A stretch of 64,000 nucleotides of DNA from Caldilineales bacterium (GTDB lineage: Bacteria > Chloroflexota > Anaerolineae > J102): contig JBBINH010000002.1 in NCBI GenBank assembly GCA_037443945.1, forward strand, positions 33,644-97,643, given 5' to 3'. The notes beneath the pieces were generated by a model. It made no database searches. It worked only from the letters and a program-made list of their open reading frames with translations, and was not told the DNA's origin. Both the position numbers and the translations under genes were made by a program. Numbering within the stretch: position 1 is the stretch's first letter; each line of letters starts with the position of its first letter. This document shows positions 15,948-62,108 of this stretch, one piece after another.

Positions 15948-17120
15948 ATGAAATCCATCCCGGTCGGTGGTGCTCCTGACGGTGAAAACGAGCCCACGGT
16001 TGCCAATGCAGCCGTCATCTACCGTGCGCCTATCCGCGTCGGTGCCGTCAACGCGATCTTCTCGCCACCGACGGCGACCGTACCGGAACCACCCGACATG
16101 CCGACTTCGGCCCATCCCGCCACGGCGCCGCAACCCACGGAAATGGCCGCACGATCCGCCACCCCTCACCATGTCGCCAACCCGCCGCGAGCCGGTTTGG
16201 GAGGGCGAGGCTGTGTCCTCGCCTTCGTTCTGTTGGCTTTGGGGATTGTCCTCGGCGCCGGTCTGGCGCTCGCCGTCCTGTTTGTCCTCAACGGCACCCT
16301 CGATTTCGGCCGTCATGAACGGCTGATCTACCTGAATAGCTGGGTAACCGACCTCGACCGCCGCATCGAAACGGTGCAGGGCCGGATAGAGACCCAGGAT
16401 ACGGCCCTCAAGACCACACAAACCGAACTCGAGACCCTGCGCCGCCGTCTCGATGAGAGTAGCGCCCGGTTGGAAACGCTGAATACCGGATTATCCGACC
16501 TTACCGACCGGGCCGACGCATTAGCGCGTGAGCTCGAAGAGACGAGCGTCCGCATGGCCGACTTCGAGGCCACGGTGGAGACGGTCACCCAGGAAAACGC
16601 CGCCATCCGCAGCCAATTCGAGGACATCAACAACCGCCTTGTGGCCCTGAGCGAGAGCGCTGCCCGTTTTCGCGACTTCTTGCTCGGCCTGCAAACCCTG
16701 CTCGATGACCTCGTGGCCGTGACGCCGGCCACAGCCCCGGAGGCGGAAACCGCCATGACGGCGGCGCCGGAGGAAGCCATCACGGGTAGCCCGGCCCTCA
16801 GCCTGTTTCCGCCCCTGACGCCCATCCCACCACCGGCTGCCGGTCAGAGTCACATCTTCGGCCTCGTCTGGCGTGATGCCAATAGCAACGGCCTGCCTGA
16901 GGAGGGGGAGGCGGTTGTGGTCGGGGCTGTGGTCGTGCTCGCCCAGGCCGATGGGCGCCGTCTGGCCGCCACCGTCACCGGCGCCGATGGTCGCTATCTC
17001 TTTGCCGACCTCGTCCCCGGTGCTTACGTGGTCACCCTTCCCACCGAGACGACGCCTGCCATCTCGTTGGTGGCCGGCGCCGACGAAGCCGTAGAGGTCA
17101 ATATCGGCCTGGCCCCCTGA
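15948..17120 (+). CDS. membrane-anchored coiled-coil protein with a C-terminal SdrD B-like (Cna-B/carboxypeptidase-regulatory-like) domain
   Basis: The N-terminal region is Pro/Ala-rich, followed by one TM helix (VLAFVLLALGIVLGAGLALAVLFVL). A roughly 170-aa heptad-rich segment (ETLRRRLDESSARLETL...) and a TP linker follow. The C-terminal 'LVWRDANSNGLPEEGE...GRYLFADLVPGAY' resembles an SdrD B-type domain. Confidence 0.6.
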   Translation: MKSIPVGGAPDGENEPTVANAAVIYRAPIRVGAVNAIFSPPTATVPEPPDMPTSAHPATAPQPTEMAARSATPHHVANPPRAGLGGRGCVLAFVLLALGIVLGAGLALAVLFVLNGTLDFGRHERLIYLNSWVTDLDRRIETVQGRIETQDTALKTTQTELETLRRRLDESSARLETLNTGLSDLTDRADALARELEETSVRMADFEATVETVTQENAAIRSQFEDINNRLVALSESAARFRDFLLGLQTLLDDLVAVTPATAPEAETAMTAAPEEAITGSPALSLFPPLTPIPPPAAGQSHIFGLVWRDANSNGLPEEGEAVVVGAVVVLAQADGRRLAATVTGADGRYLFADLVPGAYVVTLPTETTPAISLVAGADEAVEVNIGLAP

Positions 17121-17711: not shown

Positions 17712-17882
17712 GAGCTCTTCCTATTCCGTGCTTCGTTATGGCCATTATAAACCATGGCTATCGGAGGCGAAAGGTGGCGGATCGGGGACGACGGGACCCG
17801 ATCGAGACCTTCGTCTCCCTGCACCCACGGGGCTGTGGCAAACGACATCGAATGTCACCTGCGTTTTTCTCTTGTTCTGACC

Positions 17883-19808
17883 ATGCTCGTTCGTTTTCTT
17901 CTCCCCGGACTCTTAGCCCTGGTTCTGACGGCGACCGGCGCCGGCGGGGGCGGTGCTGTTGAACGCTCATGGCCTCCCGATCCGACCAGCCCGGCCTACT
18001 GGCATGACGCCTTGCGCCAGGCCCATGCTCCCGGCGAGGTATTGGTGCATTGGCGGACATCCTCGTGGCAGGCCCAGGGCCAACCCGCCGCTTTGGCCAC
18101 GGCGGAGCTGCTGAGCTTCATGCCCGAGCTGGGCTTGGCCCACTATCGGATTCAGGGCGATCTGGCCACCGCTCTGGCCGCTCTCAACCGGGATCCGGCC
18201 GTGGTGTTCGCCGAACCCAACTACCGGGTGTGGCCGGCTTTTGAGCCGGATGATCCCTACTATCGCCAATACGCTGCTAACGATTCCCTCCCCACCGGTG
18301 GTTATCTCAATCGTCTGAACATGGCCGCGGCCTGGGATATCACCCGTGGGCATCCGGCCATCCTTGTCGCCGTCATTGACAGCGGCATTGATCTCGAGCA
18401 CGAAGACATTCGGGCCAACCTGTGGCAGAATCCCGGCGAAGTGCCTGCCAACGGTCGTGATGACGATGGCAACGGTTTCGTAGACGATGTGTACGGTTGG
18501 AATTTTGCCGCCGACTCGCCCGATGTGGATGACTGGTTGGGCCACGGCAGTCATGTTGCCGGCATCATCGCGGCCCGCATCAACAACGGCCTCGGCATCG
18601 CCGGCGTGGCGCCCAAAACCCAGGTCATGGCCGTGGGCGTTTTTGCCCCGCCGGGGTACGGGACCTTCGCCGATGAGATTCGCGCCATCCTCTATGCCAC
18701 CGACCAGGGTGCCGATGTCATCAACCTGAGCCTGGGCAGCACGGCCTACAGCCGTGGCGAGGAAATGGCCGTCGACTACGCCGTGCGACGGGGGGTGGTG
18801 GTCGTGGCTGCTGCCGGGAACAACGGTCGCACAGTCTACCACTGGCCGGCCGCCCATCCGGCGGCCATTGCGGTGACGGCGACCACGGCCCGCGATGCCA
18901 TCGCCGGGTTTTCCAATCGCGGGGATTTTGTCGATCTGGCGGCGCCGGGGGTGGCCATCTGGTCGTTGCGACGGGGCGGCGGCTATCTGGCCATGAGCGG
19001 GACGAGCATGGCTACGCCCCATGTGGCCGGCGTGGCGGCGTTGATCCTGGCCCACAACCCCACCCTGACACCGGCCGAAGTCCGCGCCATCCTGGAGACG
19101 ACGGCCACCGACCTGGGCGTCCTCGGCCGGGACGAGGTCTTCGGCTACGGCCGCGTCGATGCTCTGGCCGCCTTGCGGGCCACGCCGCCCTATACCGGCA
19201 CCGTGCTCCCCGATCTCCCCGACTGGCTGCGCGCCCGGACCTGGCCACCTCTGTGCCGCGAACTCGTGCGCGAGGGCGATTTCGAGACCGACCCCCCGGT
19301 AGTCTGGCAGCTCGACGGCGCCGCTACCCTGACGACCACGGTGGCCTTATCGGGGACGCGTTCTCTGTTCCTGGGCGGCGAGCCGGGCCGGCAGGCCTCG
19401 GCACGGCAGACCTTCAGCGTGCCCTCCGACCTTCGGGCAGCGACCCTCGCCTTCGGCCTGCGCTTGGAAAACGAGGACTACGACCTGGGCAGCGACCCCC
19501 AATGGCCCGGCCGCGACCGGCTGAGCGTCTGGCTGCGCACATCCACGGGCGAAGCTCTTCTGGAGCTGTTACGGGCCGGGAATGCCGATTACAACCTGGC
19601 GGCAGGCTTGCCGTGGGATCGCTATCTCCATGTGCTGAACGAAGAGGAAATCGCCCTGCTGGCCGCCCAGGGTCAGGTGCAGATCGAGTTCACGGCGATG
19701 AACGACACCGACCCGCAGCCAACCCGGTTTTATATTGACGACGTGCGCCTGTGCGGAAGCCACGCACCGGTCTATTTGCCTTTGCTCCGGCGTCCCTCCC
19801 TGCCATGA
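17883..19808 (+). CDS. secreted subtilisin-like serine protease (peptidase S8) with C-terminal extension ending YLPLLRRPSLP
   Basis: Signal peptide MLVRFLLPGLLALVLTA. The catalytic triad motifs are present: D (VIDSGID), H (GHGSHVAG) and S (GTSMATPHVAG). There is a roughly 200-aa C-terminal domain. Confidence 0.9.
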   Translation: MLVRFLLPGLLALVLTATGAGGGGAVERSWPPDPTSPAYWHDALRQAHAPGEVLVHWRTSSWQAQGQPAALATAELLSFMPELGLAHYRIQGDLATALAALNRDPAVVFAEPNYRVWPAFEPDDPYYRQYAANDSLPTGGYLNRLNMAAAWDITRGHPAILVAVIDSGIDLEHEDIRANLWQNPGEVPANGRDDDGNGFVDDVYGWNFAADSPDVDDWLGHGSHVAGIIAARINNGLGIAGVAPKTQVMAVGVFAPPGYGTFADEIRAILYATDQGADVINLSLGSTAYSRGEEMAVDYAVRRGVVVVAAAGNNGRTVYHWPAAHPAAIAVTATTARDAIAGFSNRGDFVDLAAPGVAIWSLRRGGGYLAMSGTSMATPHVAGVAALILAHNPTLTPAEVRAILETTATDLGVLGRDEVFGYGRVDALAALRATPPYTGTVLPDLPDWLRARTWPPLCRELVREGDFETDPPVVWQLDGAATLTTTVALSGTRSLFLGGEPGRQASARQTFSVPSDLRAATLAFGLRLENEDYDLGSDPQWPGRDRLSVWLRTSTGEALLELLRAGNADYNLAAGLPWDRYLHVLNEEEIALLAAQGQVQIEFTAMNDTDPQPTRFYIDDVRLCGSHAPVYLPLLRRPSLP

Positions 19809-20164
19809 ATGTCGCGACACGCTTGTGGCGTCTCCGGCCGGTGGTCGCCTTGTTGGCCTGGACCGGCCTGATCGGTTTGGTGAATGCCCGGGCGCCGACG
19901 CCGCCGGCGCTGGCGGCTGCAGCCTTGCTGCTCCTTTTGGCCATCACCACCACAACGGCCCCTCTCTGGCTCCTCCTGCAAAGGCGCTTGCATCCCAACC
20001 GGGCGATTCCCCTACAAGTTCGCAGCGCCTGGCTGCGGGGGCTGGAGACAGGCCTGGTCGTTGTCATCCTGCTGATGCTGCGCATAGCCGGCCTTCTCGA
20101 CGGCATCAGCGTCGCCATCGTGCTGGTGACGATGATCCTGATCGATAAGGTTTTTAGCGTCTAG
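19805..20164 (+). CDS. small polytopic membrane protein, translationally coupled to the S8 protease
   Basis: Its ATG overlaps the protease TGA (ATGA). It has 3-4 hydrophobic helices. The track ORF 19751.. carries an N-terminal extension that overlaps the protease. Confidence 0.5.
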   Translation: MNVATRLWRLRPVVALLAWTGLIGLVNARAPTPPALAAAALLLLLAITTTTAPLWLLLQRRLHPNRAIPLQVRSAWLRGLETGLVVVILLMLRIAGLLDGISVAIVLVTMILIDKVFSV

Positions 20165-33008: not shown

Positions 33009-33246
33009 TCTGGGGATGCCTGTGGTATCATCGCCAAGTTCCGGTGGCTGTCGGCGACGTTAACATTTTGTCATGCGCCTGACCTGAGCCATTCATGCCG
33101 TTTTCACCTCATTCCCCTAGAATGGCACTGCAGTGACGGCCATGGCGTAGCGAGATGGTTGTCTGCCCATGCCCCCGTCTTGCCGGGACGGTCAGCCCCC
33201 GCCGTCGCGGCAATCTTATCTCAAGCTTATGGAGGTACTTTGCATC

Positions 33247-35721
33247 ATGATGAGTAAGAAGGGGTTCCTTCTTCTCAGCACGGCGTTTATTGTCGTGACT
33301 TTGATGGCTTTTGCCGTGGCGGCTGACGAGCCGGTGCTTCCGCCGGTGGAGCCGACCACGGTCGCACCGGCCCAACCCGAAGCAAGTGATTATGCCCCTC
33401 CGCCGGCAGGACAGCCGGGCTTTTATATCGAGAACGGTCGTTTCAACATCTTGCAGCCGGCCCAGGCCTATTATGCGACCGGGTCGTTCGGTTTTTGGGC
33501 CTGGTCTTCCCTCAATCCAGCGCGAGGGAGTTACAACTGGGAGATCCTCGATACCTGGGTGGCCGACAGCATCGCTGCCGGCTATGAAACCGTCGGCATT
33601 GCCCTCAAAACCTATACCGGTCGTTTTGTGGGATGCCAGTTTCAGGGCATCGATATGACCCCGGCCTGGGTGCTGGCCGGTCAGGACGGTATCCGTGGCA
33701 ACGCCGACGATCCTGTCCTGTTGTCAAGTGTGCCGGATCGTCGTGATTGCGATAGGGATGGCAATCCCGATAACGGTCCCTGGTACCTGATCCAGTACAA
33801 CCACCCTTACTACAAAAGCAACTACATTGCCTTCATCAACGCGTTGGCCGACCATTTGTTCAGCGCGCCTTATCGCGACCGGGTGGCCTGGGTGGCCATC
33901 GGCACGGGCAAGGATGGTGAGAACAAACCGGCCGATGATGACGACGATCCCACCTTGCTGGCCAACGGTCTTAGCACCGAGGCCTGGATCTTGCATGTCC
34001 AGGAGATTATCGAGACGTATCGCGCAGCGTTTTACGATGGGTCGGGATTCCCGCGCATTCAACTCGTCTTGCAGAATGCGCCCTTTTATCGCAGCCCCAT
34101 CGAGCGGCGCGACCTGGCCAATTACGCGGCCACGCGGCGGATTGGGCTTTCCATCAACAACATTACGTCCGATTTCAACTCGGTTGAATCATGCGCCAGT
34201 CCCAATTCGAACACGCGTTGCACGGGCATCTACGATCAGGCGCGGCAATACAACAGCATTGCTCCGATCATGCTGGAAAGCTACGCGTACATGATGCCCA
34301 CACCCAACGAGTTTTACTGGTCCATGGCGCGCGCGCTGGATGTCAGGGCCGACTACATCCGCCTTTCCAGTTTCTGGAATACCCAGACCAATCCCGACAA
34401 TTTGACCACGGCCGAATGGGCCAGCCGTTACATCGGGACGGGCTTCGCCGAAGGCCAGCGCCGACCGCCCAGCGTGTGGTCGCGCATGCGAGAGCATAAA
34501 GACCCCTGCTACCTGGGTTACGCCTTCATCAATCCCTGTAACTTCTGGCCGACCAACGGCAACTACGAGTTTTATCTCACCCAGCTCCACCTGCCCCAGT
34601 TCGGCGGTGTGACCATCCCCGTCACCGATGACGATCGCATCCGCATCACCGGCTGGGATCACAGCGAATCGAACGTGGTTGACAAGCGCTGGCACTACAA
34701 CACGAGTCCCTTTGACCAGAAATTGCGCGATGCCGGTCTTTTCGCCCTGACCCCCAGCGGTGTCCAGAATCAGGTCGATCCGGGGTGGGTGGCACGGCGT
34801 AGCGATCAGGCCACGAATAACACCAAGTTCATTTTCGACGCCGCCGATCGCTACTTTGCCCGCTCGCAGCCGCCGGCCGAAAGCACCTTCAAGGTCGTCA
34901 TCACCGTGACCTATCTGGATGTGGGCAACGACCAGTGGTTGCTGGTCTACGATTCGACGACAGGGCCCAGGGCGGCCACGGTGTACGCCATCAACGATTG
35001 GAATGTGCGCCGTGGATTGGCCGTGGACGACTTTTTACCGGTAGATGGCCGTGTCCTGCCTCCGGTCAATTACGTCCAGAAGACCGGAACGAATCGCTGG
35101 AAGGTGGCGACCTTCGTCATCGAGGACGGCAACTTTAACAACCTGGTGCTCAACGAGGCCCGTGCCGACTTTTACATCGAATCCCGCAGTCCCAGCGGCC
35201 AGAAGGACGGCGATGAGTACATCCACCACGTGGATGTGCGCAAGGTGGACGAATTTATCGAAGTAACACCGACGCCGACGCCGACCACGGCGCCGACGGC
35301 CACGCCCACGCCGACGGCCACACCGATGCCGACGGCCACGCCCACGCCTACCGCCACCCCGACGCCCACACCCTCCACCGGCAGCATCGTCGGCAAGGTC
35401 TATTACGATCGCAACCAGAACCGTCAGCCCGATCCCGGCGAGGGTTTGGCCGGCGGTGTGTTGGTCCTGAGCGGTCCTACCCATGCGCAGACCACCTCGG
35501 CGGTAGACGGCTCGTATGGCTTCCATGCCTTGCCGCCCGGTAGCTACGTGCTACGTTCGACGCCGCCGGCAGGCTACAACCGGGCCGATCCCGACACGGT
35601 GGCGCTTTTCGTCCAGGCCAATACCATCTTGACCTGGGACTTTGCCCACGAACCTCTACCGGATACGACGCCTTCGCCTCCCGCAGGCGAGCCCCTCTAT
35701 CTGCCGCTGTTACGGCGTTAG
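33247..35721 (+). CDS. secreted GH42-like TIM-barrel (glycoside-hydrolase-like) protein with Thr/Pro linker and C-terminal SdrD B-like domain; ends in YLPLLRR
   Basis: Signal peptide MMSKKGFLLLSTAFIVVTLMAFAVA. 'WAWSSLNPARGSYNWEILDTWV' resembles the GH42/GH35 N-terminal barrel signature (W..EP..G.Y.W..LD). It is paralogous to the N-terminal ~600 aa of the giant protein. A TPTPTP linker and 'VYYDRNQNRQPDPGE...GSYGF' SdrD-B domain follow. Confidence 0.75.
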   Translation: MMSKKGFLLLSTAFIVVTLMAFAVAADEPVLPPVEPTTVAPAQPEASDYAPPPAGQPGFYIENGRFNILQPAQAYYATGSFGFWAWSSLNPARGSYNWEILDTWVADSIAAGYETVGIALKTYTGRFVGCQFQGIDMTPAWVLAGQDGIRGNADDPVLLSSVPDRRDCDRDGNPDNGPWYLIQYNHPYYKSNYIAFINALADHLFSAPYRDRVAWVAIGTGKDGENKPADDDDDPTLLANGLSTEAWILHVQEIIETYRAAFYDGSGFPRIQLVLQNAPFYRSPIERRDLANYAATRRIGLSINNITSDFNSVESCASPNSNTRCTGIYDQARQYNSIAPIMLESYAYMMPTPNEFYWSMARALDVRADYIRLSSFWNTQTNPDNLTTAEWASRYIGTGFAEGQRRPPSVWSRMREHKDPCYLGYAFINPCNFWPTNGNYEFYLTQLHLPQFGGVTIPVTDDDRIRITGWDHSESNVVDKRWHYNTSPFDQKLRDAGLFALTPSGVQNQVDPGWVARRSDQATNNTKFIFDAADRYFARSQPPAESTFKVVITVTYLDVGNDQWLLVYDSTTGPRAATVYAINDWNVRRGLAVDDFLPVDGRVLPPVNYVQKTGTNRWKVATFVIEDGNFNNLVLNEARADFYIESRSPSGQKDGDEYIHHVDVRKVDEFIEVTPTPTPTTAPTATPTPTATPMPTATPTPTATPTPTPSTGSIVGKVYYDRNQNRQPDPGEGLAGGVLVLSGPTHAQTTSAVDGSYGFHALPPGSYVLRSTPPAGYNRADPDTVALFVQANTILTWDFAHEPLPDTTPSPPAGEPLYLPLLRR
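35266..35375 (+). repeat. Thr/Pro-linker coding low-complexity repeat (ACNCCN)n
   Basis: Reiterated ACG CCG ACS CCS units encode [37 protein letters not shown]. Confidence 0.8.
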
Positions 35722-35774
35722 CCCGGCGGCAAGGCATTGACCACCCGCCTTCATTCTCGTCCGTTCCTGCCCTT

Positions 35775-37085
35775 ATGGTTGGGCAGGAACGGAACGATTC
35801 CGGTTTCCCTGTGCCCGGTTTGTGGCGCTTCGTGTTGCTCCTCGTTAGTTTGGCCATCTGCGGTGGCAGCGTGCTCTTCCTCCCGGTCGCTGCCCATCCG
35901 GCTCGTTCACCGGTTGGCATGGCCGTCTCCACCGAGGCGACACCCATCCCCCGTGTTTATTGTGGGGGTGTCTATCGTGGCGATACGAGCACCGGCACGG
36001 CTCAGATCGATCGCTATGCCTGTCGACCCGATTGGCCCGAAACCGGACCGGAACATTTCTATCGCCTGTCCATCCCGACGACACAATCGCTGACCCTGGT
36101 CCTGAGTCATCCCCCCGGTCTGGATCTGGATGTGTTCTTGCTGGAGCATGAACAGCTCGATCGTTGCCACGCTGCCGATGCCACGCTGGCATTGGCCGCC
36201 TTAGCACCGGGTCCACATCGCATTGTCGTGGATGGTTTTGCCGACAGTCAGGGACCTTATACGCTTGCCGTGCTCTGTGAAGGGCCACCCTTGGCCACAC
36301 CAACCCCGACCGATACGCCGCTGCCGACGGCTACCCCGACGCCGACTCTCGTCCTGACGGCTACGCCGACCCCCACCCGCACGCCCACGCGGCCGCGCCT
36401 CAGCTACGATGCCTTTTTCCCGGCCCAGCGCCGCCGCTATCCCCCGCCTACGCCGCTGCCGACTACCCTTATCCTCCAGCCCGGTCGGCAAGGCTACGAC
36501 GGACTCGCCGATAGCTACCTCAGCGCTTGGGCTATTACCGAGAATTATGCTAATGTAGACCGGCTTGCACTTCGGCAGTCCGACATCATGGCTCCGGTCT
36601 TACGCTTCCGGCTTGATGGTCTGCCTGCCGATGCCCGCATTGTCGAGGCACGTTTGAGCCTGTGGGCCTTAGCCCGCAGTAACGACAACCCGGCCACGGC
36701 CGGCCTCTATCCCCTTCATCGTCCCTGGCAGGTGGATGAAGTCACCTGGCAGCAGGCGGCCAACGGTGTCCCGTGGGCCCAACCCGGCGCCAACGGCGTA
36801 CCCGTCGACCGGGGAGGCGTGCCTCTGGCCGTGCAGACGGTGACGGAGACGGGCCGCTGGTATGAGTGGGACCTGACCCCGCTTGTCCAGGCCTGGGTTG
36901 CCGACCCTACAACCAATCATGGCATGATCCTCAAAGCTCTGGCCATACCCCGCGTGCTCTACACTTTTGCGGCAGCCGAATATCACAACCCGGCTGCCCG
37001 ACCTCGGTTGCTCATCCGTTACTGGACTCCCACCCCATCCCACCAGGCCTCAACCGTGCCGTTTACGCCATCGCCGTCCCCCTGA
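35775..37085 (+). CDS. secreted protein with PPC (pre-peptidase C-terminal)-like domain, TP linker and DNRLRE-like C-terminal domain
   Basis: Hydrophobic N-terminus. 'FYRLSIP...LDLDVFLLEHEQ...GPYTLAV' resembles the PPC domain. The C-terminal 'WYEWDLTPLVQAWVADPTTNHGMIL' matches the DNRLRE-type module also present in the giant protein. Confidence 0.65.
   Translation: MVGQERNDSGFPVPGLWRFVLLLVSLAICGGSVLFLPVAAHPARSPVGMAVSTEATPIPRVYCGGVYRGDTSTGTAQIDRYACRPDWPETGPEHFYRLSIPTTQSLTLVLSHPPGLDLDVFLLEHEQLDRCHAADATLALAALAPGPHRIVVDGFADSQGPYTLAVLCEGPPLATPTPTDTPLPTATPTPTLVLTATPTPTRTPTRPRLSYDAFFPAQRRRYPPPTPLPTTLILQPGRQGYDGLADSYLSAWAITENYANVDRLALRQSDIMAPVLRFRLDGLPADARIVEARLSLWALARSNDNPATAGLYPLHRPWQVDEVTWQQAANGVPWAQPGANGVPVDRGGVPLAVQTVTETGRWYEWDLTPLVQAWVADPTTNHGMILKALAIPRVLYTFAAAEYHNPAARPRLLIRYWTPTPSHQASTVPFTPSPSP
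36295..36395 (+). repeat. Thr/Pro-linker coding low-complexity repeat
   Basis: Encodes [34 protein letters not shown]. Confidence 0.8.
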
Positions 37086-37101
37086 CCAGGAACGAAGCAC
37101 C

Positions 37102-37854
37102 ATGATCATCAGCAAACCTCAGATCCTCGGTTCCAAATTGCGGTCTACTGTGGAGGTTTCTCCTTCCTCAACGACAACCCAGGTTGTTCCCTTTGTCCCA
37201 CCGGCGCCGACGTTGACCGGCTACCGTCTGGCCAAGCGAACCCTGGACGTTGTTGTGGCCTTGTTGGCGCTTATCCTGCTTTCGCCCCTGTTTATCTTGA
37301 TCTGTTTGGCCATCAAACTCGAAGACGGCGGCCCTGCCATTATCAAACAGCGTCGCGTGGGCTTGGGAGGCCGGCCCTTTGCGTTTTACAAGTTCCGCTC
37401 GATGACGTTGGGGGTCGATCATACCCTAGCCCATCGAGCCTTTGCGCAACAGGTTATCCGCGGGGAGATTACCCAGGGGCCTCGTAGCAACGGCGGCGTG
37501 CTCAAACCGACCGGCGATGGTCGTGTGATCACCCGCGTGGGCCGCATTTTGCGCAAGACGAGTCTGGACGAGCTGCCGCAATTGTTCAACGTTCTGATGG
37601 GTACCATGAGTTTGGTGGGGCCGCGGCCCTCGATGGATTACGAGGCCGAAGCTTACTTCGATTGGTATCTGCCCCGGCTGTCGGTTTTGCCCGGGATTAC
37701 GGGGCTGGCTCAGATCAACGGCCGCAGCAGCATCCCCTTCCCCGAAATTGTGCGTTGGGATCTGCGGTATATCGAACAACGCTCGTTCTGGCTCGATCTG
37801 AAAATCTTGCTTAAGACCTTGCCGGTGGTTGTGGGGATGCGGAACACGGGGTGA
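37102..37854 (+). CDS. monotopic polyprenyl-phosphate phosphoglycosyltransferase (bacterial sugar transferase, PglC/WbaP C-terminal-domain type)
   Basis: A single N-terminal membrane helix ([22 protein letters not shown]) is present. 'KFRSM', '[22 protein letters not shown]' and '[12 protein letters not shown]' are hallmark PF02397 motifs. Confidence 0.85.
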
Positions 37855-37876
37855 AGGGCTTTCTGCGGGTACGGCG

Positions 37877-38629
37877 ATGGCGCTGAACCCGGACGATCTG
37901 GCCTATTTTGCCCGCGGGGCGCGGGCGAACCCGCGTTTCTGGGCCCGATTCGGGGGCATGCCCGATCTGAAGGGAAAACGGGTCCTCGATATCGGCTGCG
38001 GACACGGGAGTTTGTGCGTGGATATGGCCGCGGCCGGCGCCGAGCAGGTCGTGGGGTTGGATCTGAACTGTCGTCTGATTGCCTTTGCCGAGGCCTACGT
38101 CGAACGATTTCGGCCGGAACTGCGGTCGCGGCTGCGATTTGCCTGTCAGGATCTGCGCGACTATCCGCCGATGCTGTTCGACCTTATCGTCTCCAAAGAT
38201 ACGTTTGAGCATGTCCTCGATCTGGAGGGCTTGCTGGCCGAAATCCACCGACGGTTGGTGCCCGGAGGGCGGTTGTATGCCGGCTTCGGACCGCTCTACT
38301 ACAGTCCCTTTGGCGATCACGATGCCGTGCGCCTGGGCGTGCGGTTGCCTTGGGCGCACGTGCTCATGGGCGACCGCCGGGTCATTGCCCATGTCAATCG
38401 GCGACGGCGGGTCCCGATCCAGACGATCCGGGAATTGGGCCTCAATCAGCTTCGCCTGCGCGACTACCGCCGCCTTTTTGCGGCCTGCGGCTTACAGACC
38501 GTAGCCTGGTGGACAAACCGCACCGACCATCCTGTCGGCAAAATGTTGGCCGTGCTCGCCCACGTACCCGGTCTGGCCGATTATATGACCTTCAACGTCT
38601 ACTGCATCCTCCAAAAACGCGGCGCCTGA
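37877..38629 (+). CDS. class I SAM-dependent methyltransferase
   Basis: 'VLDIGCGHGSLCVDMAAAGA' is motif I. An acidic residue after beta2 (GLDLN) and motif II (LIVSKDTFEHV) are present. Confidence 0.75.
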   Translation: MALNPDDLAYFARGARANPRFWARFGGMPDLKGKRVLDIGCGHGSLCVDMAAAGAEQVVGLDLNCRLIAFAEAYVERFRPELRSRLRFACQDLRDYPPMLFDLIVSKDTFEHVLDLEGLLAEIHRRLVPGGRLYAGFGPLYYSPFGDHDAVRLGVRLPWAHVLMGDRRVIAHVNRRRRVPIQTIRELGLNQLRLRDYRRLFAACGLQTVAWWTNRTDHPVGKMLAVLAHVPGLADYMTFNVYCILQKRGA

Positions 38630-38737
38630 GCTTGGTCGTGTCGGCACCGCCGTCGGGAAGCGAGTCCCGGTTGTTTTGCGGCAGGGCTTTGGCTTCGTCC
38701 ATGACCGTGGTCTATAATCCGGTAACCGGCGCCAACG

Positions 38738-41700
38738 TTGCGTCTGTTCCTGGGTATCCGTCCGATGTCCCCCTCTCGTTCGTCGCGACGCCTGGTTTTC
38801 CTTTTCCTTGCCATCGGGTTGATCGTGGTGGTGATCGGTGGGGTTGGCCTGCTTTGGTGGCGGTGGTGGCGCCCGCCATCCCCTGTCCCCTCACCCACCG
38901 CTATCGTAACGACCACACCGACGCCGGCTATGCCATCCACACCGACGCCGACCCTAACGCCCACGCCGACGCCGGTAGCGACCGAAGTTGCTGCTCAGGT
39001 GGTGTTTGGCTCGCTGCAGCCGGGGGTGTACGAGGCCTATGATCATCTCAGTCGCGAGCCCGAACTGCGCGGGGGCACCCTGGAATTTCGTTGGAACCAG
39101 GTCGAACCTCTCCAGAACGGCTATAACTGGTCGGTCCTGGACCGGGCCTTGGCGCAACTTCCGACCGGACGCCGCGCCATCCTGCGCCTGATGGTGCGTT
39201 GCAACGAGGGCAACAACGAGGTCTGCACGCCGGATTGGGCGCTGCGCGACGAGTTCCGTCCCATCGTTGCCGCCGTGCCCCCGGCTTGTGGTCTAAGCGC
39301 AAGCACGCGAAAGCACTTGAACTATCTGGACGAGGGTGTCCAGCGCGAGCTTTTGGAGCTGATCCGCCTGTTGGGCCAACGGTACAATGCCGATCCGCGG
39401 GTGACGGCCGTGGAAGTCGGCGTGGGTTATAACGGTGAATCGTCGCCGTGGCCGTTGACCACGCTCTGCGACAAGGAGGCCCAACGCAGCGCTTACGAGG
39501 CCGCCTACGGCCCTACAGGACCGCGACAATGGGCGGATTGGCATCTCCGCCAGCTAGAGGCCTATACGGCCGCTTTCCCGGATCAGACGTTGCTCACCAT
39601 CATCACCGGGGATTACGCCGAGGCCGAGCGCTGGCGGGTGGTGCAGTGGGCCGTGGAGCACGGGGTGGGGCTGATGGTGACCTCGCTGGTGGCCGACTAT
39701 CATAGCAATCGCGGCAAAAGCGGCGATTTTTGTTTTTGGGGTGCCATCACGCGGCCGAGAGCAGCTCCCAGCGCCACCCTGGCCAATGCCTACCTCACCC
39801 AATGGGCGGCCTTGGACCACGTGTGGGAACAGGTCCCTATCGGTTTTGAGTTCAATAACGCCTCAAGCTTGATCGGCCTCGGTATCGAGGCCCACACCTG
39901 GTGGTCGGCCCTTAATGCTCTGGACAAACATGCCGATATCATCGAACCGTTTCGGGCCAACACCCGCCAAACTGCGGTTTGGCGTTTTGTCAATGCCTAC
40001 ATCGGCCAGACGGCCGGCACCACACCGGCGGTCTGGATTGTTTTCCGCAGCAGCAATCCCGCTCTGCCTGACGCCCAATGCGGCGATCTGTTCGATTACT
40101 CGTTTTTCCTCATCCATGAATTGGAGAGGCTGGGGTACGATACCCTCCTGCAGCAACAAAGCGTGCGTCGGGCCGATGCCTTGACACGACGTTTCCAGAT
40201 CGGCCCGGCTACCGATTGGCGCGGGGCTTATGCTCGTGAAACGGCCGACGGATGGCCGGTTTTCAACCTCGATGTCGATGATACGTTCAGCAGGCGCCTC
40301 GGCGGTGCGGTTGAGGTCGTCGTCACCTATTTCGATCATGCCAACGGCGGGCGTTGGGCGCTCGATTACGATAGCCTCACCGGTCCGCGTCGGGCCGGTG
40401 AAGTCGTGCTGACGGGGACCAACACCTGGCGAGAGCAGGTTTTCCGGTTGAACGATGTCCGCTTCGGCAACGGTTTGCCCAAAATGCAGGCCGATAGCCG
40501 TCGGACGGGTTTTGATCTGCGTCTGGACCGGGTGGACGGAACGAACGATAGCTTCCATCGGGTCCTGGTGCGGCCTGTGGGGACGATTCCCCTGATGAGC
40601 CCCACACCACGACCAGGCCGGACACCAACGCCTTCTGCCCCCACACCGACGCCGCAGTCGCCTTTCTACTTTCGCTTCCGACAGGGGATCGACGAGTACC
40701 GAGGCGTGCGCGATACGTTTATCGAGGCCTTTCAGCCCGACGTTGCGCGTGCCAACGAGCCGCTGTTGGGCGTGCGACCTCTCGACCGAGCTGCTGCCTT
40801 GCTGTATTTCGACCTCGGTCGTCTTCCTCCGGATGCCCTTGTCCATCGGGCCTATCTCTATCTGACGCGGCTGGCGCCGGCCGATCAAACCGTCACCCTG
40901 ACCCTCTATCGGTTGTTGCGGTCCTGGAGCGAGATGGCGACCTTCCGCCAGGCCGATACCGACAGCCCCTGGGAGCAGCCGGGTGCTCTCGGCCTGAGCG
41001 ATGCCGCTTCCAACCCCGTGGCCGGGCCGCTACCGGTTGCCCCCGGCGCCGTGGCCCGCTTCGATGTGACCGCCCTGGTCCAGAGTTGGATCGCCGATCC
41101 GATGCTCAATCAGGGCCTGATCGTGCGGGGTGACAGCAACGTTGCGCGACGATACGAGTTTGCCAGCAGCGAAAACCCTACACCGGTTTGGCGGCCGTAT
41201 CTGGAAATCCTTCTAGAAACGCCGACGCCCACGCCAACCCGCACGCCCACCCCGACGCCCACCCCGACTGCCACGCCTACGGCCACAGCCACGCGTACGC
41301 CGACCTCGACCCGCACGCCCACATCCACCCCGACCCCCACCCCCAGTCCCACCGCTACGCCGACGCCGACCCCCACACCGGCCGTACGCCTGCGCGAGGA
41401 GACGGTCTTGCGTCGCGGGCCTGGCTTCAATTTCGATGGACTCGCCACGGCAGCTGCCGACACCGTCCTTCCGCTGCTGGGACGCAGCGCCGACGGCGAT
41501 TGGCTGGCCGTCTGTTGCGTAGGAACCGATCCGGCCTGGGTACCCGGCATGAATGCCGAGGTGTTGCACATCACAACGGAGGCTTTGCCCATCATTAGCT
41601 CGCCACCGACGCCCACACCGACGCCTACGCATACACCGACCCCCACACCCTCGCCGACACCGTCACCGACGGCCACCGCAACGGCGACGCCCACGCCCAC

Positions 41701-43714
41701 GCCGACAGCCACCCCTACGCCCACGCCCACACCCACCGCCACGATAACCCCCACGCCGACGGCTGTGGTACCGGCCTGTCTGCCGTTTCGCCTGTTCGTG
41801 CTCGATATCGGCACCCAACCCAAAGGCGTGGCCGTGGGTAGCCTGGCCGATGGTACCGTCGTGACCGGCATCGGTCTGTACGAAAGCGCTGCTTTGGCTC
41901 TGGTCGTCGGCGATGAGGTCCGCATGATACCCACCGACGGTCGGGGCGCCAACGGTGTGGCGTTTGCCAACGGGCGGTTTTACATGGTCCATCGCGATAG
42001 CCGCAGCGTCAGCATCATCGACCCGGTGGCAGGCCGACAGGTGGGCCGTCTTCCGACGGGTCGGGAACCGTGGGGCGCGGCCGCCACTGCCGACAGGCTC
42101 TATGTGGCCGATTTTGCCGACGACACGGTGAGCGTCTTTGACCTGAATGACGAACAGCTCGTGGTCAGGGTGCCGGTCGCTCCGCTACCGGCCTTTGTGG
42201 CGGCAGCAGCCGATCGGGCGTTCGTGGCCCATCTCGGCGGTCAGATCAGTGTCATCGGTCCGGAGGGCGAGGTGCTTGCCGTTTTCGGACCCCTTATCGG
42301 CGGCGATGCGTTCGGTCTGGCCTACGACGCCGTCCACGATCGGCTGTGGGCGGGAAGCCGTCAGGCGCGCAGCCTGTTGGCCCTCGACGCCAGAACGGGC
42401 GTTGTTCAGGCCCGCTATCTTCTCCCGGCCGCACCGTATGCCGTGGCCTATAATCCGGCGACCGATCAGGTGTTGGCCGTGGATGCCGTTCACAATCGGC
42501 TGATGATCGTCCAGGCAGCCGACGGCGAGCTGCTAGGCCTCTTGCCGCTCAGCACCCAGGGTAGCGATCACGGCGGCCAGGGGCTGGCCGTATCCGCCAA
42601 CCGGATTTTCGTCCCCGCTTTTGCAGCAGGAGCGCTGGACGGTTTCGACGGTGGACCGTGTGTCACACCGACGCCAACGCCGACATCCACTCCTACCCCC
42701 ACGCGCACGCCGACCCCCACACGCACCCCGCGCGTGCGCACGCCGACCCCCACACGCACATCGACTCCGACACCGACCATCACGCCTACGGTTACACCGA
42801 CGGCCACACCCACGCCGACATCGACGCCAACCGTCACAGCGACGCCGACGGCCACGTTTACGCCGAGCCCCACACCCACGCCGACGCCGGCCACGCTTAT
42901 CGCCAAGATTCAAATCGTCTGGCCTCACGGCGGTGCTGCCGTGACCGAGGCCGAGCGGGCGAACATCACCGTCCATCTCTACGAAGACGAGGCTCTGAAC
43001 CCGGTGGTGTGTGACTTCGCCGCCACGGTGCGGTTATGGGCGGCGCGCAACAATGAACCGGCACGTCCCGTTGCCGTCGGTCAGCCTCGTCTGACCGAGC
43101 AGGACGGTCGGCGCTTTACCGTCTGGGATTTCAACGACATCGATGTCGCTGCAGCCCGCGATCCCCGCACTAAACTTCACTTCTTCGTGACCGTGGATGG
43201 CTTCGAGACGCGACACAACGTCTGGACCCATGGCGCCGATGCTCGTACCCTGGCACCTGTCCAGGATATCCCCACCGCCGTGTTGACGACGCTGCCCTCT
43301 GCCCTTGACGCACGCATCGAGATCGTCTGGCCTCACGGTGGCCGAGCGGTAAGCGAAGCTCGACTGGCCAATATCACCGTCTATCTCTTCCGCCGGGATA
43401 CCCTGGAAGCCCTGGGGCCTTCGGTGCGGCCGTTGCCGACGGTCCGTCTGCACAGGGCGCACAACAACGAGCCGGACGGCGGCCGCGCGGCGGCGCCGAT
43501 CGGTATCCCCCGGACCATCACGGCCCAGGGTCGGACCTGGCTGGTCTGGGATTTCAACGATGTGGATGTGGCTGCGGCCAACGATCCGCAGAATCGTATC
43601 TATTTCTGGGTGGATACGGATGAAGTGCCGACGGCGACGAACATCTGGACCCATGGCGTGCTCGGCCTCACGCGGGCGCCGATACAGGATGTGCCGGCCC
43701 GCAGTTGTCGGTGA
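38738..43714 (+). CDS. giant secreted multidomain protein (1658 aa): GH42-like TIM barrel + beta-sandwich + DNRLRE-like domain + TP linkers + YVTN-type beta-propeller + two tandem C-terminal ~135-aa repeats
   Basis: Signal anchor ([23 protein letters not shown]). '[24 protein letters not shown]' is the barrel signature. It is a paralogue of the 33247..35721 N-terminal region (shared ...YDS(L/T)TGPR... block). '[22 protein letters not shown]' is the DNRLRE-like module. About 7 YVTN-like ~40-aa repeats are present (e.g. [28 protein letters not shown]). The C-terminal duplicated unit is 'I(E/Q)IVWPHGG...ANITV(H/Y)L...WDFND(I/V)DVAAA.DP...(F/Y)F(F/W)V..D...T..N(V/I)WTHG'. The real start may be ATG 38765 (MSPSRSS...). 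Confidence 0.8.
38911..38985 (+). repeat. Thr/Pro-linker coding low-complexity repeat
   Basis: Encodes [25 protein letters not shown]. Confidence 0.7.
41218..41384 (+). repeat. Thr/Pro-linker coding low-complexity repeat (ACGCCSACSCCC)n
   Basis: Encodes [54 protein letters not shown]. Confidence 0.85.
41601..41762 (+). repeat. Thr/Pro-linker coding low-complexity repeat
   Basis: Encodes [53 protein letters not shown]. Confidence 0.85.
42663..42897 (+). repeat. Thr/Pro-linker coding low-complexity repeat (longest, ~235 nt)
   Basis: Encodes [77 protein letters not shown]. Confidence 0.85.
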
Positions 43715-59536: not shown

Positions 59537-59912
59537 TTTGGCCGTCTTATGTGGCTGTATTAGGATTAGAGCTGGCAATCATCGGCGACCGGGGCAGCCT
59601 TTACCGAGTACGTCCCCTTTCTATGCGGATGGGCTGCTTTCGGCCAACGCGAACGCCTCCGAGTCTGTTGAAGATGTAGCGACCGTATAAGACGGGCCTT
59701 TGTCGGCCTGCCTTCGGGTGAGTTTTTGAGATCGCCTCGATCTGTCTTGGGTATCGTGGTTATGCCCTCGCAAGCGGCAGAGACCTCGTTGTAGCGATTC
59801 GCTCCGGGTTTCTGCCTCTCATAACGTCCCTTGCTGTGAGTGTTGAGAGGCTCACAGGGGCGGAGCTTGGGCAAAAAAGGTAACATTATCCGTTACATTT
59901 TTGGCAACAATT

Positions 59913-60803
59913 ATGCAAAAAACTCTAATTCGTCCTGTCTCGTCGCCTGGCATTGATAATACAACCGTTGCGATCGGAAAAATCGTCATTGAACCGCCAC
60001 GTGGTCTACCGCACATCAATTGGCGAGAATTGCTGGCCTATCGGGACTTGTTCTATTTCATGGTGCGTCGGGATATTCAGGTCCTCTATCGGCAAACGGT
60101 GTTGGGATTGGCCTGGGCGTTTTTGCGACCCTTTATCAGTATGATTCTCTTTACATTCATTTTCGGTCGTGTGGCCAGGTTAAACAGCGATGGCGTTCCC
60201 TATCCCCTTTTCAGCTACACAGCCCTTGTGCCTTGGACTTACTTTGCTACGGTCGTCCAGACGGCGACAACCAGCTTGATCACCAACAGCAACATGCTGA
60301 CCAAGGTCTACTTTCCTCGCCTGGTCTTCCCGTTGACACCGGTATTCTCGAAATTGCCCGATTTTCTGCTTGCCCTCGGCTTGTTGCCTGTTTTCATGGT
60401 TGTTTATCGGGTATGGCCGACCCCTTATGTACTCGTCCTACCCGCTCTGGTCGTCATCATGGCAGCATCGGCGGCCGGATTGGGAATGTGGCTGGCTGCG
60501 CTGGCCGTGCAGTATCGCGATGTCAATCATGCTTCCCAATTTCTTATCCAGATCCTGATGTTTGCGGCACCGGTCGTGTGGCCGGTCTCACTCATGACGG
60601 CCCACTTCGGCGAAACGGCGCGGTTGCTTTACGGCCTCTATCCCATGGTGGCCGTGATCGAGGGCTTTCGCGCGGCTCTCCTGGGTACGGTGCCCATGCC
60701 CTGGGATTTGATCGGAATCGGCGCCGTCTCGGCAAGTTTACTCCTCGTTTCCGGCGCCTACTATTTTCGTCACATGGAACGGCGCTTCGCCGATGTGGCC
60801 TGA
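59913..60803 (+). CDS. wzm: ABC-2 type polysaccharide/O-antigen export permease (Wzm/TagG/KpsM family)
   Basis: Six TM helices, and the N-terminal 'ELLAYRDLFYFMVRRDIQVLYRQTVLGLAWAFLRP' ABC-2 signature, are present. The track ORF begins at an alternative TTG (59901). I place the start at ATG 59913. Confidence 0.85.
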   Translation: MQKTLIRPVSSPGIDNTTVAIGKIVIEPPRGLPHINWRELLAYRDLFYFMVRRDIQVLYRQTVLGLAWAFLRPFISMILFTFIFGRVARLNSDGVPYPLFSYTALVPWTYFATVVQTATTSLITNSNMLTKVYFPRLVFPLTPVFSKLPDFLLALGLLPVFMVVYRVWPTPYVLVLPALVVIMAASAAGLGMWLAALAVQYRDVNHASQFLIQILMFAAPVVWPVSLMTAHFGETARLLYGLYPMVAVIEGFRAALLGTVPMPWDLIGIGAVSASLLLVSGAYYFRHMERRFADVA

Positions 60804-60821
60804 AACCGATCCGAACAGCTC

Positions 60822-62108
60822 ATGAGCCGTATAGCCATCGAAGTCGAAAACCTGAGCAAGCGTTATCGCATCGGGTTGACCCAAGAAGAGGAACAGGACA
60901 CCCTGGGTGGTGCTCTGCTTTCCTGGCTCAAGGCGCCGATCACGAACTTTCGGCGCCTACAACGGCTGAGTCGATTCGATGACGGCGAGGAAGCCGATGT
61001 CATTTGGGCGCTGCGGGATGTCAGTTTTCAGGTCGCCGAAGGCGAGGCCGTGGGGATTATCGGTCGTAACGGCGCCGGCAAGAGTACCTTGCTCAAAATT
61101 CTGACCCGTATTACCCCACCTACGACCGGTCGCGCCGTCCTAGACGGCCGGGTCGCGAGCCTGCTCGAAGTCGGCACCGGTTTTCATCCCGAACTGACCG
61201 GACGCGAGAATGTCTATCTGAACGGCACCGTTCTCGGCATGACCGCGCGTGAGATCGAGCGCAAATTCGACGAAATCGTCGAATTCTCCGGCGTGGCCAA
61301 ATTTATCGATACGCCGGTCAAACGTTATTCGAGCGGGATGCGGGTGCGTCTGGCCTTTGCTGTGGCTGCCCATCTCGACCCCGAGATCCTGCTTATCGAC
61401 GAGGTGTTGGCCGTGGGCGATGCCCGGTTTCAGCGCAAATGCCTGGGCAAGATGAACGAGATCGCCAATGAGGGCCGCACGGTCCTCTTCGTCAGCCATA
61501 ATCTACCTTCCATCGAGGCCTTGTGTGCACGGGCCTTCGTTTTGGACGAAGGACGACTTGTTTTCAGCGGTGATGCTCGCGAAGCGGTCAGCTTTTATCT
61601 CAACCGCCAAGTCTTCGGTCTGACCAGCGGTGTGGATTTGCGCCATCACCCTCATCGTCTTGCGGGCGATCGTGAGCCTATTTTCACCTCCTTGCGGCTT
61701 TTGAATGCCGATGGTTTGGAGACAAGCTCCTTCGCCATCGGCGAACCTATCACCTTTGAGCTACGGTTGGATTTGGGCGAAGCGGAGCTGGATACACCCC
61801 TGATTACCATTGCCATCGAAAAGCGCGGGATTCCCATTTGCGCTCTGACAACTCGCTTCATGGTGGCACAGCGTTTTACGCTGACCGGTCAGGCTATGGC
61901 CCGTTGTACCTGGCGTCCGGGCTGGTTGACACCGGGCGAATACACCGTCAGCCGTGTAACCCTCAAAGCCGGAGCTTCGGCCGAACGCCTCGACCATATC
62001 GAAGAGGTCCTGGCTTTTGAAATTGTAGAACGGGATGTCTACGGCACCGGCAAAATTGCCCGCAAGGATACCCTGCTCGTTCCCAACGGCACATGGCAAT
62101 TCTTCTGA
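60822..62108 (+). CDS. wzt: polysaccharide export ABC transporter ATP-binding protein with C-terminal carbohydrate-binding domain (Wzt-like)
   Basis: Walker A (GRNGAGKST), the signature YSSGMRVRLAFA and Walker B (LLIDEVLAVGD) are present. There is an extra ~170-aa C-terminal beta-domain, as in Wzt. Confidence 0.9.
   Translation: MSRIAIEVENLSKRYRIGLTQEEEQDTLGGALLSWLKAPITNFRRLQRLSRFDDGEEADVIWALRDVSFQVAEGEAVGIIGRNGAGKSTLLKILTRITPPTTGRAVLDGRVASLLEVGTGFHPELTGRENVYLNGTVLGMTAREIERKFDEIVEFSGVAKFIDTPVKRYSSGMRVRLAFAVAAHLDPEILLIDEVLAVGDARFQRKCLGKMNEIANEGRTVLFVSHNLPSIEALCARAFVLDEGRLVFSGDAREAVSFYLNRQVFGLTSGVDLRHHPHRLAGDREPIFTSLRLLNADGLETSSFAIGEPITFELRLDLGEAELDTPLITIAIEKRGIPICALTTRFMVAQRFTLTGQAMARCTWRPGWLTPGEYTVSRVTLKAGASAERLDHIEEVLAFEIVERDVYGTGKIARKDTLLVPNGTWQFF

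Follow-up and report, generated by a model that had tools for sequence, protein, structure and literature searches.

A conserved ultrashort C-terminal YLP-box on unrelated exported hydrolases of Caldilineales and other Chloroflexota

Two proteins encoded in a 64,000-nucleotide stretch of a Caldilineales genome (contig JBBINH010000002.1, positions 33,644 to 97,643 of the forward strand; hereafter the window, with positions counted from its first letter) end in the same heptapeptide, YLPLLRR, which belongs to a short C-terminal element that we refer to as the YLP-box. The first of them, protein B, is encoded on the forward strand by an open reading frame (ORF) which in its longest form comprises 850 residues (33169-35721; delimited from the reading frame, its homologues and an AlphaFold model), and its true start is probably the MSKKG sequence at 33250, because the homologues of B begin there. 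Nucleotides 35698-35721 read TAT CTG CCG CTG TTA CGG CGT TAG and hence encode YLPLLRR followed by the stop codon (35719-35721); direct reading places the complete box, PLYLPLLRR, at 35692-35718 of the forward strand, within the C-terminal sequence ...PSPPAGEPLYLPLLRR (in its longer form ...HEPLPDTTPSPPAGEPLYLPLLRR). The preliminary description of this locus had presented the peptide as the extreme C-terminus of a large exported protein, and both halves of that statement hold: the stop codon follows the tail directly in the 850-residue ORF, and the N-terminus of B carries a signal-type hydrophobic segment, MSKKGFLLLSTAFIVVTLMAFAVAADEP. The second protein, protein A, is a 684-residue S8 subtilase (17754-19808, forward strand; Pfam PF00082, E-value 3e-66, and PF22148) that consists of a fervidolysin-like N-propeptide, the protease domain, a C-terminal beta-sandwich and a terminal YLP-box. 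Its box, PVYLPLLRR, lies at 19767-19793 of the forward strand, with YLPLLRR itself at 19773-19793, and is followed by the residues PSLP (19794-19805) and the stop codon (19806-19808), so that four residues trail the two arginines in A and none in B; the C-terminus of A reads ...SHAPVYLPLLRRPSLP, or in its longer form ...CGSHAPVYLPLLRRPSLP. A protein 100% identical to A is on record (P0068, Logan run SRR11582170), and an exact-sequence look-up of protein B returned no record.

The tail is genuine, is not a chance match and is under selection as a peptide. In a six-frame scan of the window the pattern Y[LIVM]P[LIVMF][LIVMF] occurred at only two sites within long ORFs, both of them within 11 residues of a stop codon, and the amino-acid composition of the window itself predicts about 4e-6 ORFs with YLPLLRR within their last 12 residues. 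Four of the seven codons differ between the tails of A and B, all of them synonymously (TTG/CTG, CCT/CCG, TTG/CTG and CTC/TTA), which argues that what is conserved is the peptide and not the DNA. No direct repeat, inverted repeat or terminator was found to overlap the tail of either gene. Beyond the B stop codon, by 40 nucleotides, lies a perfect 13-nucleotide inverted repeat (TCCGTTCCTGCCC / GGGCAGGAACGGA, 8-nucleotide loop, 35760-35793), the loop of which contains the first codon, ATG at 35775, of the longest ORF of the next gene, encoding a DNRLRE protein, and which is not followed by a T-run. This repeat could form a hairpin of terminator-like or translational-control function; alternatively, the DNRLRE protein may truly start further downstream.

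Protein B is built from a signal-type N-terminus, a barrel resembling the triose-phosphate isomerase (TIM) barrel of glycoside hydrolase family 35 (GH35), a beta-sandwich, a Pro/Thr-rich (PT) linker, an SdrD_B-like domain and the YLP-box. The AlphaFold model, built on 45 homologues, has a mean predicted local distance difference test score (pLDDT) of 85 and a predicted template modelling score of 0.75; in the 830-residue numbering it opens with an N-terminal helix, residues of about 60-420 form a (beta/alpha) barrel and those of about 440-680 a beta-sandwich, a disordered PT linker (687-713) leads to the SdrD_B-like sandwich (718-805), and the tail (813-830) is disordered, with pLDDT below 50. 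The best PDB matches returned by Foldseek are GH35 beta-galactosidases (E-value 1.6e-9, 9% identity, target-normalised template modelling score 0.44). At the sequence level the Pfam model of the related family GH42, PF02449, scored 18.9 bits against a cutoff of 21 (E-value 1e-3) and so did not reach the gathering score. Because the resemblance to GH35 is structural and the sequence matches are sub-threshold, the term GH-like that had been applied to B is right at the level of the fold and does not extend to family membership: the model depicts a GH-A-clan-like protein, and assignment to either GH35 or GH42 is not demonstrated. The succession of SdrD_B-like domain, spacer and tail that had been read from the sequence is borne out. 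The SdrD_B-like (CnaB/carboxypeptidase-regulatory-like) beta-sandwich occupies 35380-35643 of the forward strand, as delimited by PF17210 and the AlphaFold model; the PF17210 match covers residues 742-808 with an E-value of 2.7e-6 and 28.0 bits, just under the gathering cutoff of 29.7, and PF17210 is precomputed on most homologues of B, as PF13620 also is on homologues. Between this domain and the box lies a Pro/Thr/Ser-rich spacer, HEPLPDTTPSPPAGE (35647-35691, forward strand; from sequence and the AlphaFold model), of which neither the length nor the sequence is kept among B homologues. In a 45-sequence family alignment the proline of the motif is nearly invariant (P826), and the adjoining linker varies.

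The preliminary description had held the tail to be a shared tag and had allowed that it might prove absent from the orthologues of its two carriers. It is kept in the orthologues of both A and B and in a third, unrelated family, which speaks for a shared tag and not for coincidence. Among 67 homologues of B, the named ones of which all stem from Caldilineales, Caldilineae, Anaerolineae or Chloroflexota metagenome-assembled genomes (MAGs), 50 of the 56 closer ones (45-94% identity) end in [LVIM][YF][LMIV]P[LMIV][LIM]x[RQKH] with 0-6 further residues, as exemplified by LYLPLLQRTNSN, LFMPMLLR, VYVPLIRR and IYMPIIQTP; most of the six closer homologues without the tail look truncated or partial. 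For the subtilase, 72 of 98 close orthologues (41-100% identity) have [YFHW][LIVMF]P in their last 20 residues, where the internal rate predicts 3%, and most of the others depart from this pattern only slightly (YYP, YWP or IFPL, for example). The motif proline of A is likewise nearly invariant (P676 in a 55-sequence alignment), and the linker before it is not. The third family consists of beta-lactamase-like ("CubicO") serine hydrolases, one of which ends in ...PAPAPLYLPLLRRAG (L096; related loci and homologous proteins are designated by L and P numbers). The box is found in 41 of 49 close homologues of this hydrolase, the named ones from Ardenticatenales and Anaerolineae, and in none of 68 distant homologues, the named ones of which include Actinomycetota, Pseudomonadota and Bacillota. 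Taken over the three families, the tail is kept in more than 160 homologues. A scan of metagenome contigs with a DNA pattern for P[LV]Y[LF]P[LF][LF]RR gave at least 120 matches, nearly all of them random hits in non-coding frames, with a human-gut sequence recurring among them; the only genuine carriers among the matches listed were a B orthologue (L143) and the beta-lactamase-like hydrolase of L096.

Separate from these conserved tails, a distant subgroup of B homologues (P0057-P0065; L030, L032, L033, L038, L044, L045, L048-L050) has neither the SdrD_B domain nor the YLP-box and shows a conserved tail of its own, ...R(V/P)ADFDF(A/D/P)LVTP or ...GEF(G/D)YG(L/F)(V/L)IP, which may be either a final beta-strand or a different tag. 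Among relatives of the subtilase, P0172 and P0174 end in ...GGVI(V/I)PV(N/S)K, a hydrophobic stretch of about 20 residues and (K/R)RR(G/E)S, a classical tripartite sorting-type tail that stands at the place of the YLP-box of A and gives a weak IPTL-CTERM match below cutoff.

A motif census, which had been put forward as the means of checking the tail genome-wide, was run on roughly 1 Mb of related sequence, namely the window and 76 related loci from Caldilineales and Anaerolineae (about 1.05 Mb). Of 680 complete ORFs in a greedy set, 38 have the core [YF][LMIV]P[LMIVT][LIMF] among their last 17 residues, against 0.4 expected from the internal rate, which amounts to an approximately 100-fold C-terminal enrichment, and the 13 internal matches fall mostly in membrane helices. 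An N-terminal hydrophobic segment without any other transmembrane segment was present in 48 of 52 carriers and in 98 of 508 other ORFs. The motif is not followed by a transmembrane segment; 0-10 residues trail the box, most commonly 2-7 beyond position +2 relative to the proline. The resulting consensus is R/P-x-[LVI]-[YF]-[LMV]-P-[LMIV]-[LIVM]-x-[RQK] followed by 0-10 residues, and the composite profile around the proline shows Arg or Pro at -4, Leu or Val at -3, Tyr (or Phe) at -2, Leu (or Met or Val) at -1, Leu, Val or Met at +1, Leu, Ile or Val at +2, a variable residue at +3 and Arg, Gln, Asn or Lys at +4. In view of the glycan locus we considered the aromatic residue as a tyrosine O-glycosylation sequon and rejected this, as Phe, His or Trp replaces Tyr in about 40% of tails. 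One expectation of the preliminary description was not upheld: the Pro-rich spacer is no shared pattern among carriers and stands outside the motif, because its length runs from nothing to about 40 PT-rich residues, and upstream the only preference is for an Arg or Pro that precedes the aromatic residue by 2-4 positions. The domains that precede the tail are of at least four kinds (SdrD_B-like, PPC-like, the S8 C-terminal sandwich and the C-terminal domain of the beta-lactamase-like proteins). Further carriers include a family of about 850-930 residues that combines alpha/beta-hydrolase, DNRLRE and SdrD_B domains, a protein in L012 with a PPC-like domain just before the tail, and SdrD_B-repeat proteins in L051 and L060. 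Two Anaerolineae loci, L054 (4526-9648 and 15189-19760) and L056 (4477-9468 and 15252-19556), each contain five to six adjacent carrier genes, with the tails RAHLPFVLR, YQYFPVVPK, SVYMPQISR, HYLPFVTR and YQFMPLVP, on either side of a 1,700-residue B-like protein that ends in ...RQLLPQIWKGRRLVNE. Taken together, the YLP-box is an ultrashort C-terminal linear motif carried by many unrelated exported hydrolases of Chloroflexota (Caldilineales, Ardenticatenales and Anaerolineae).

Two curated NCBIfam models, both described as "YLP-box putative sorting motif-containing protein", cover this motif: NF053834.1 (ultrashort_CTERM; 10 positions, cutoff 10 bits) and NF050076.1 (sort_motif_YLP; 11 positions, cutoff 15 bits). 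The tails of A (13.7-14.0 bits) and B (12.5-12.6 bits) both score above the cutoff of NF053834 and align to its positions 2-10. The cutoff of NF050076 was not reached, with 13.4 bits for the A tail, no reported match for B and 14.8 bits for the best relative, RTYLPLVMQ; this model appears to be tuned to ...R-x-YLPLV(L/M)... variants. When longer fragments of B or full-length proteins are searched, the match to NF053834 is dropped by the HMMER filters at about E > 0.1, and this loss may be the reason that annotations of such proteins do not go beyond "S8 family serine peptidase" or "hypothetical protein".

Pfam and NCBIfam annotation of the window places protein B at the head of a polysaccharide locus. 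Downstream of B follow an initiating transferase (Bac_transf, 36967-37854), a methyltransferase (37829-38629) and a 1662-residue, paralogue-like protein (38726-43714) with a weak GH42-like N-terminal match as in B; this last protein clusters with B by BLAST, and its C-terminus is without a YLP-box. Further downstream lie a Wzx-like flippase, glycosyltransferases of families GT2, GT4 and GT2, and a Wzm/Wzt exporter of the ABC-2 type (59847-62108), the ATPase of which carries a Wzt_C domain. The methyltransferase and the Wzm/Wzt pair suggest a glycan pathway dependent on an ATP-binding cassette (ABC) transporter, with a methylated (capped) chain end, and this pathway could glycosylate the PT linkers of the exoproteins encoded nearby. 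The neighbourhood is conserved: across the 76 related loci, the most frequent neighbours are Bac_transf (17 loci) and a hexapeptide acetyltransferase (13), followed by GFO/IDH/MocA oxidoreductases (10), epimerases (10), methyltransferases, Wzx, GT4 and Wzy_C; the annotated conserved neighbour clusters, among them also GT2 and Wzm/Wzt, belong to polysaccharide biosynthesis only, and they are accompanied by unannotated proteins with eight transmembrane segments. No sortase-, exosortase-, rhombosortase-/rhomboid- or CPBP-like gene was seen in the 77 loci.

The gene directly beside B encodes a 436-residue protein with a DNRLRE/CBM96-like domain (35775-37085, forward strand; NF033679, E-value 1.5e-23; PF06848 and PF24517), which is organised as a signal-type N-terminus, a PPC-like domain, a PT linker, an internal box and the DNRLRE domain. 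The internal box is a degenerate YLP-like sequence, FFPAQRRR (36414-36437, forward strand), between the PT linker and the DNRLRE domain, which, on its sequence, we tentatively regard as a resemblance to the YLP-box only. At the equivalent place eight homologues, likewise encoded directly after B-family genes (L003:10106-11329, L007:3136-4392, L012:12390-13655, L019:12438-13697, L046:12531-13826, L051:9261-10559, L057:2756-4054 and L058:12604-13908), have ...YLPxQ... or ...WYLP(V/L)(M/A)MWQ..., for example GPWYLPVMMWQ in L057 and L058, YQLYLPSQPRGYPPP in L046, and also ...YLPxQxxxYPPPTP.... The NCBIfam YLP-box models gave no match on these internal boxes, which may be processing sites.

Around protein A, the conserved gene order in Caldilineales is SLT, DsbB, a coiled-coil protein, RsmD, S8, a small ORF and MurE, and in more distant lineages (L079 and L080) the S8 orthologue comes after MoxR (AAA_3) and DUF58. 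The coiled-coil protein upstream of the S8 gene (15948-17120) has a C-terminal SdrD_B domain and is conserved at L077:2562-3734 and L078:7835-9328. Directly downstream of the S8 gene a small hydrophobic ORF (19751-20164), which has no Pfam match, overlaps the S8 tail in its longest form; small ORFs are also called after the S8 gene at L077:6419-6778 (119 residues) and L078:11922-12491 (189 residues), those of the window and L078 being equated by position and not by comparison of their sequences.

We believe that the YLP-box probably serves as a sorting or retention signal that is read in trans outside the cell. Under this proposal, carriers would be exported by the Sec pathway through their N-terminal signal peptide, and their catalytic and beta-sandwich domains would fold extracellularly; the unstructured tail, often presented on a Pro/Thr-rich linker, would then be recognised in trans by an envelope component, either a sorting enzyme or a receptor, which would retain the enzyme at the cell surface or in the matrix, or process it there. 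A linear motif read in trans is favoured because the tail is modular, lineage-restricted, found on exported proteins and often borne by PT linkers, because AlphaFold leaves the tails of both A and B unstructured and undocked in cis, and because the subtilase relatives P0172 and P0174 have a motif followed by a transmembrane segment and a basic anchor in the same place. We also count in its favour the NF053834 matches of both tails, the conservation of the tail with its nearly invariant proline, its enrichment at C-termini, the codon differences between A and B, and the clustering of carriers in polysaccharide-biosynthesis loci, with up to five or six per locus in L054 and L056. We further infer a dedicated partner for the YLP-box. 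A bolder form of the proposal, which we put forward as speculative and somewhat doubtful, is that the box signals a tether-free sorting or attachment system, in which Anaerolineae would possess an extracytoplasmic enzyme or receptor that recognises the 8-residue box and then cleaves exoenzymes or links them, by a covalent or other bond, to sheath, exopolysaccharide or wall, with the internal boxes of the DNRLRE proteins as its processing sites; if true, this would add a mechanistically new class to the surface sorting of bacteria.

Several points weigh against a sorting or retention signal. To our knowledge, every characterised C-terminal sorting signal has a transmembrane helix, and because the YLP-box tail is without one, cleavage of a membrane-tethered substrate in the style of sortases or exosortases cannot be assumed. 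Annotation of the window and the 76 related loci revealed no partner enzyme or receptor. In addition, the mean identity between tails of different carrier families is 2.17 of 7 positions within genomes and 1.90 between them, a difference that is not significant (reached in 606 of 5000 permutations, or in 544 of 5000 when the window is left out), and co-evolution with a genome-specific receptor is for this reason not demonstrated. Moreover, NCBIfam itself labels the motif 'putative' only, the NF053834 match of B was reported for fragments of 21-22 residues only, and a search of the accessible literature found no paper that names the motif or its NCBIfam models and no experimental data on sorting, anchoring or processing by it.

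The box could instead be a site of proteolytic processing or maturation, at which a protease, possibly a co-occurring subtilase, would trim off the few residues behind it or, where the box is internal, part domains from each other. The conserved internal YLP-like box between PT linkers in the DNRLRE proteins beside B would fit such a site, the 0-10 non-conserved trailing residues resemble a leaving group, and one of the carrier families is itself an S8 protease. However, many carriers stop two residues past the hydrophobic pair (...LLRR), which leaves almost nothing to remove, and the curated models fail to recognise the internal boxes, and we regard this explanation, although the main rival, as unlikely. 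Alternatively, the tail could be a self-sufficient physico-chemical anchor, an Arg-flanked hydrophobic patch of six residues that would adhere non-covalently to the membrane interface, to exopolysaccharide or to an anionic wall polymer and would require neither a dedicated enzyme nor a receptor. Its hydrophobic core, the enrichment of Arg at -4 and +3/+4, the clustering of carriers in polysaccharide loci, the lack of a partner gene in the window and related loci and the lack of significant within-genome covariation speak for such a patch. The nearly invariant proline, with an aromatic residue fixed two positions earlier, points instead to specific recognition, and generic hydrophobic tails would not hold their register over three families; a passive anchor therefore appears improbable to us.

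We give very little credence to the notion that the tail acts in cis, as the last strand of the preceding domain or as an element that folds back, for example as an autoinhibitor. In the S8 model the tail (residues 671-684) is not fully disordered, with an intermediate pLDDT of about 61-69 in a model of mean pLDDT 88, which could be taken to suggest some structural role, but it is coil in both models and pLDDT is below 50 in B, and a tail that follows at least four different terminal domains over linkers of 0 to about 40 residues is difficult to reconcile with such a role. As to chance, compositional coincidence, or a translated DNA-level repeat or regulatory element, the motif is admittedly short, and the exact 9-mer pattern also turns up at random in non-coding frames of unrelated metagenomes. 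Against this stand the vanishingly small number of such ORFs expected in the window, the different synonymous codons of the two copies together with the lack of any overlapping repeat or terminator, and the conservation over three families, and a chance origin of the tail is excluded.

Soils, sediments and wastewater sludge harbour abundant Chloroflexota, and the finding bears on how these bacteria hold on to degradative exoenzymes at their surface. A sizeable number of their secreted hydrolases, including proteases, glycosidase-like proteins, esterases and beta-lactamase-like proteins, bear the YLP-box, which stands out from other C-terminal sorting signals by its lack of a membrane-spanning segment. 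A box that is conserved, modular and linked to polysaccharide loci offers a handle for finding the machinery involved and for better prediction of surface proteins in MAGs.

Among known systems, LPXTG/sortase signals resemble the YLP-box in that they tag Sec-exported surface enzymes and adhesins at the C-terminus, have an 'LP' core and trailing basic residues, and often come after SdrD_B/CnaB-type domains and Pro/Thr-rich, wall-spanning linkers. The YLP-box differs in having neither the T-G of the pentapeptide nor the hydrophobic helix of about 20 residues before the basic residues, and a terminal YLPLLRR does not fit the LPXTG-type arrangement of pentapeptide, hydrophobic helix and basic tail. 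The PEP-CTERM/exosortase system and the related GlyGly-, MYXO-, PGF- and IPTL-CTERM signals are similarly lineage-restricted, recur many times within a genome on exported proteins that are unrelated, and share with the YLP-box an association with exopolysaccharide loci. Those signals, however, are tripartite (motif, transmembrane helix and Arg-rich cluster) and are cut by a polytopic membrane enzyme, whereas the YLP-box has no transmembrane helix and no PEP signature; the tails of A and B do not conform to the PEP-CTERM/exosortase type, and NCBIfam models of this type gave no match on them. PDZ-binding tails and the outer-membrane beta-signal are likewise short hydrophobic C-terminal peptides that act as linear motifs, but these need a particular terminal residue (for example a terminal Phe) and its carboxylate, in contrast to the YLP-box, in which the distance from the proline to the C-terminus varies from 2 to about 12 residues. 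With the tails covered by NF053834 and NF050076, finally, those of the window share the same C-terminal motif of 9-10 residues, and nothing essential differs. The two tails are new members of a motif class that is already curated in NCBIfam and known at the database level, and to this catalogued motif the window adds instances and genomic context and not its discovery.

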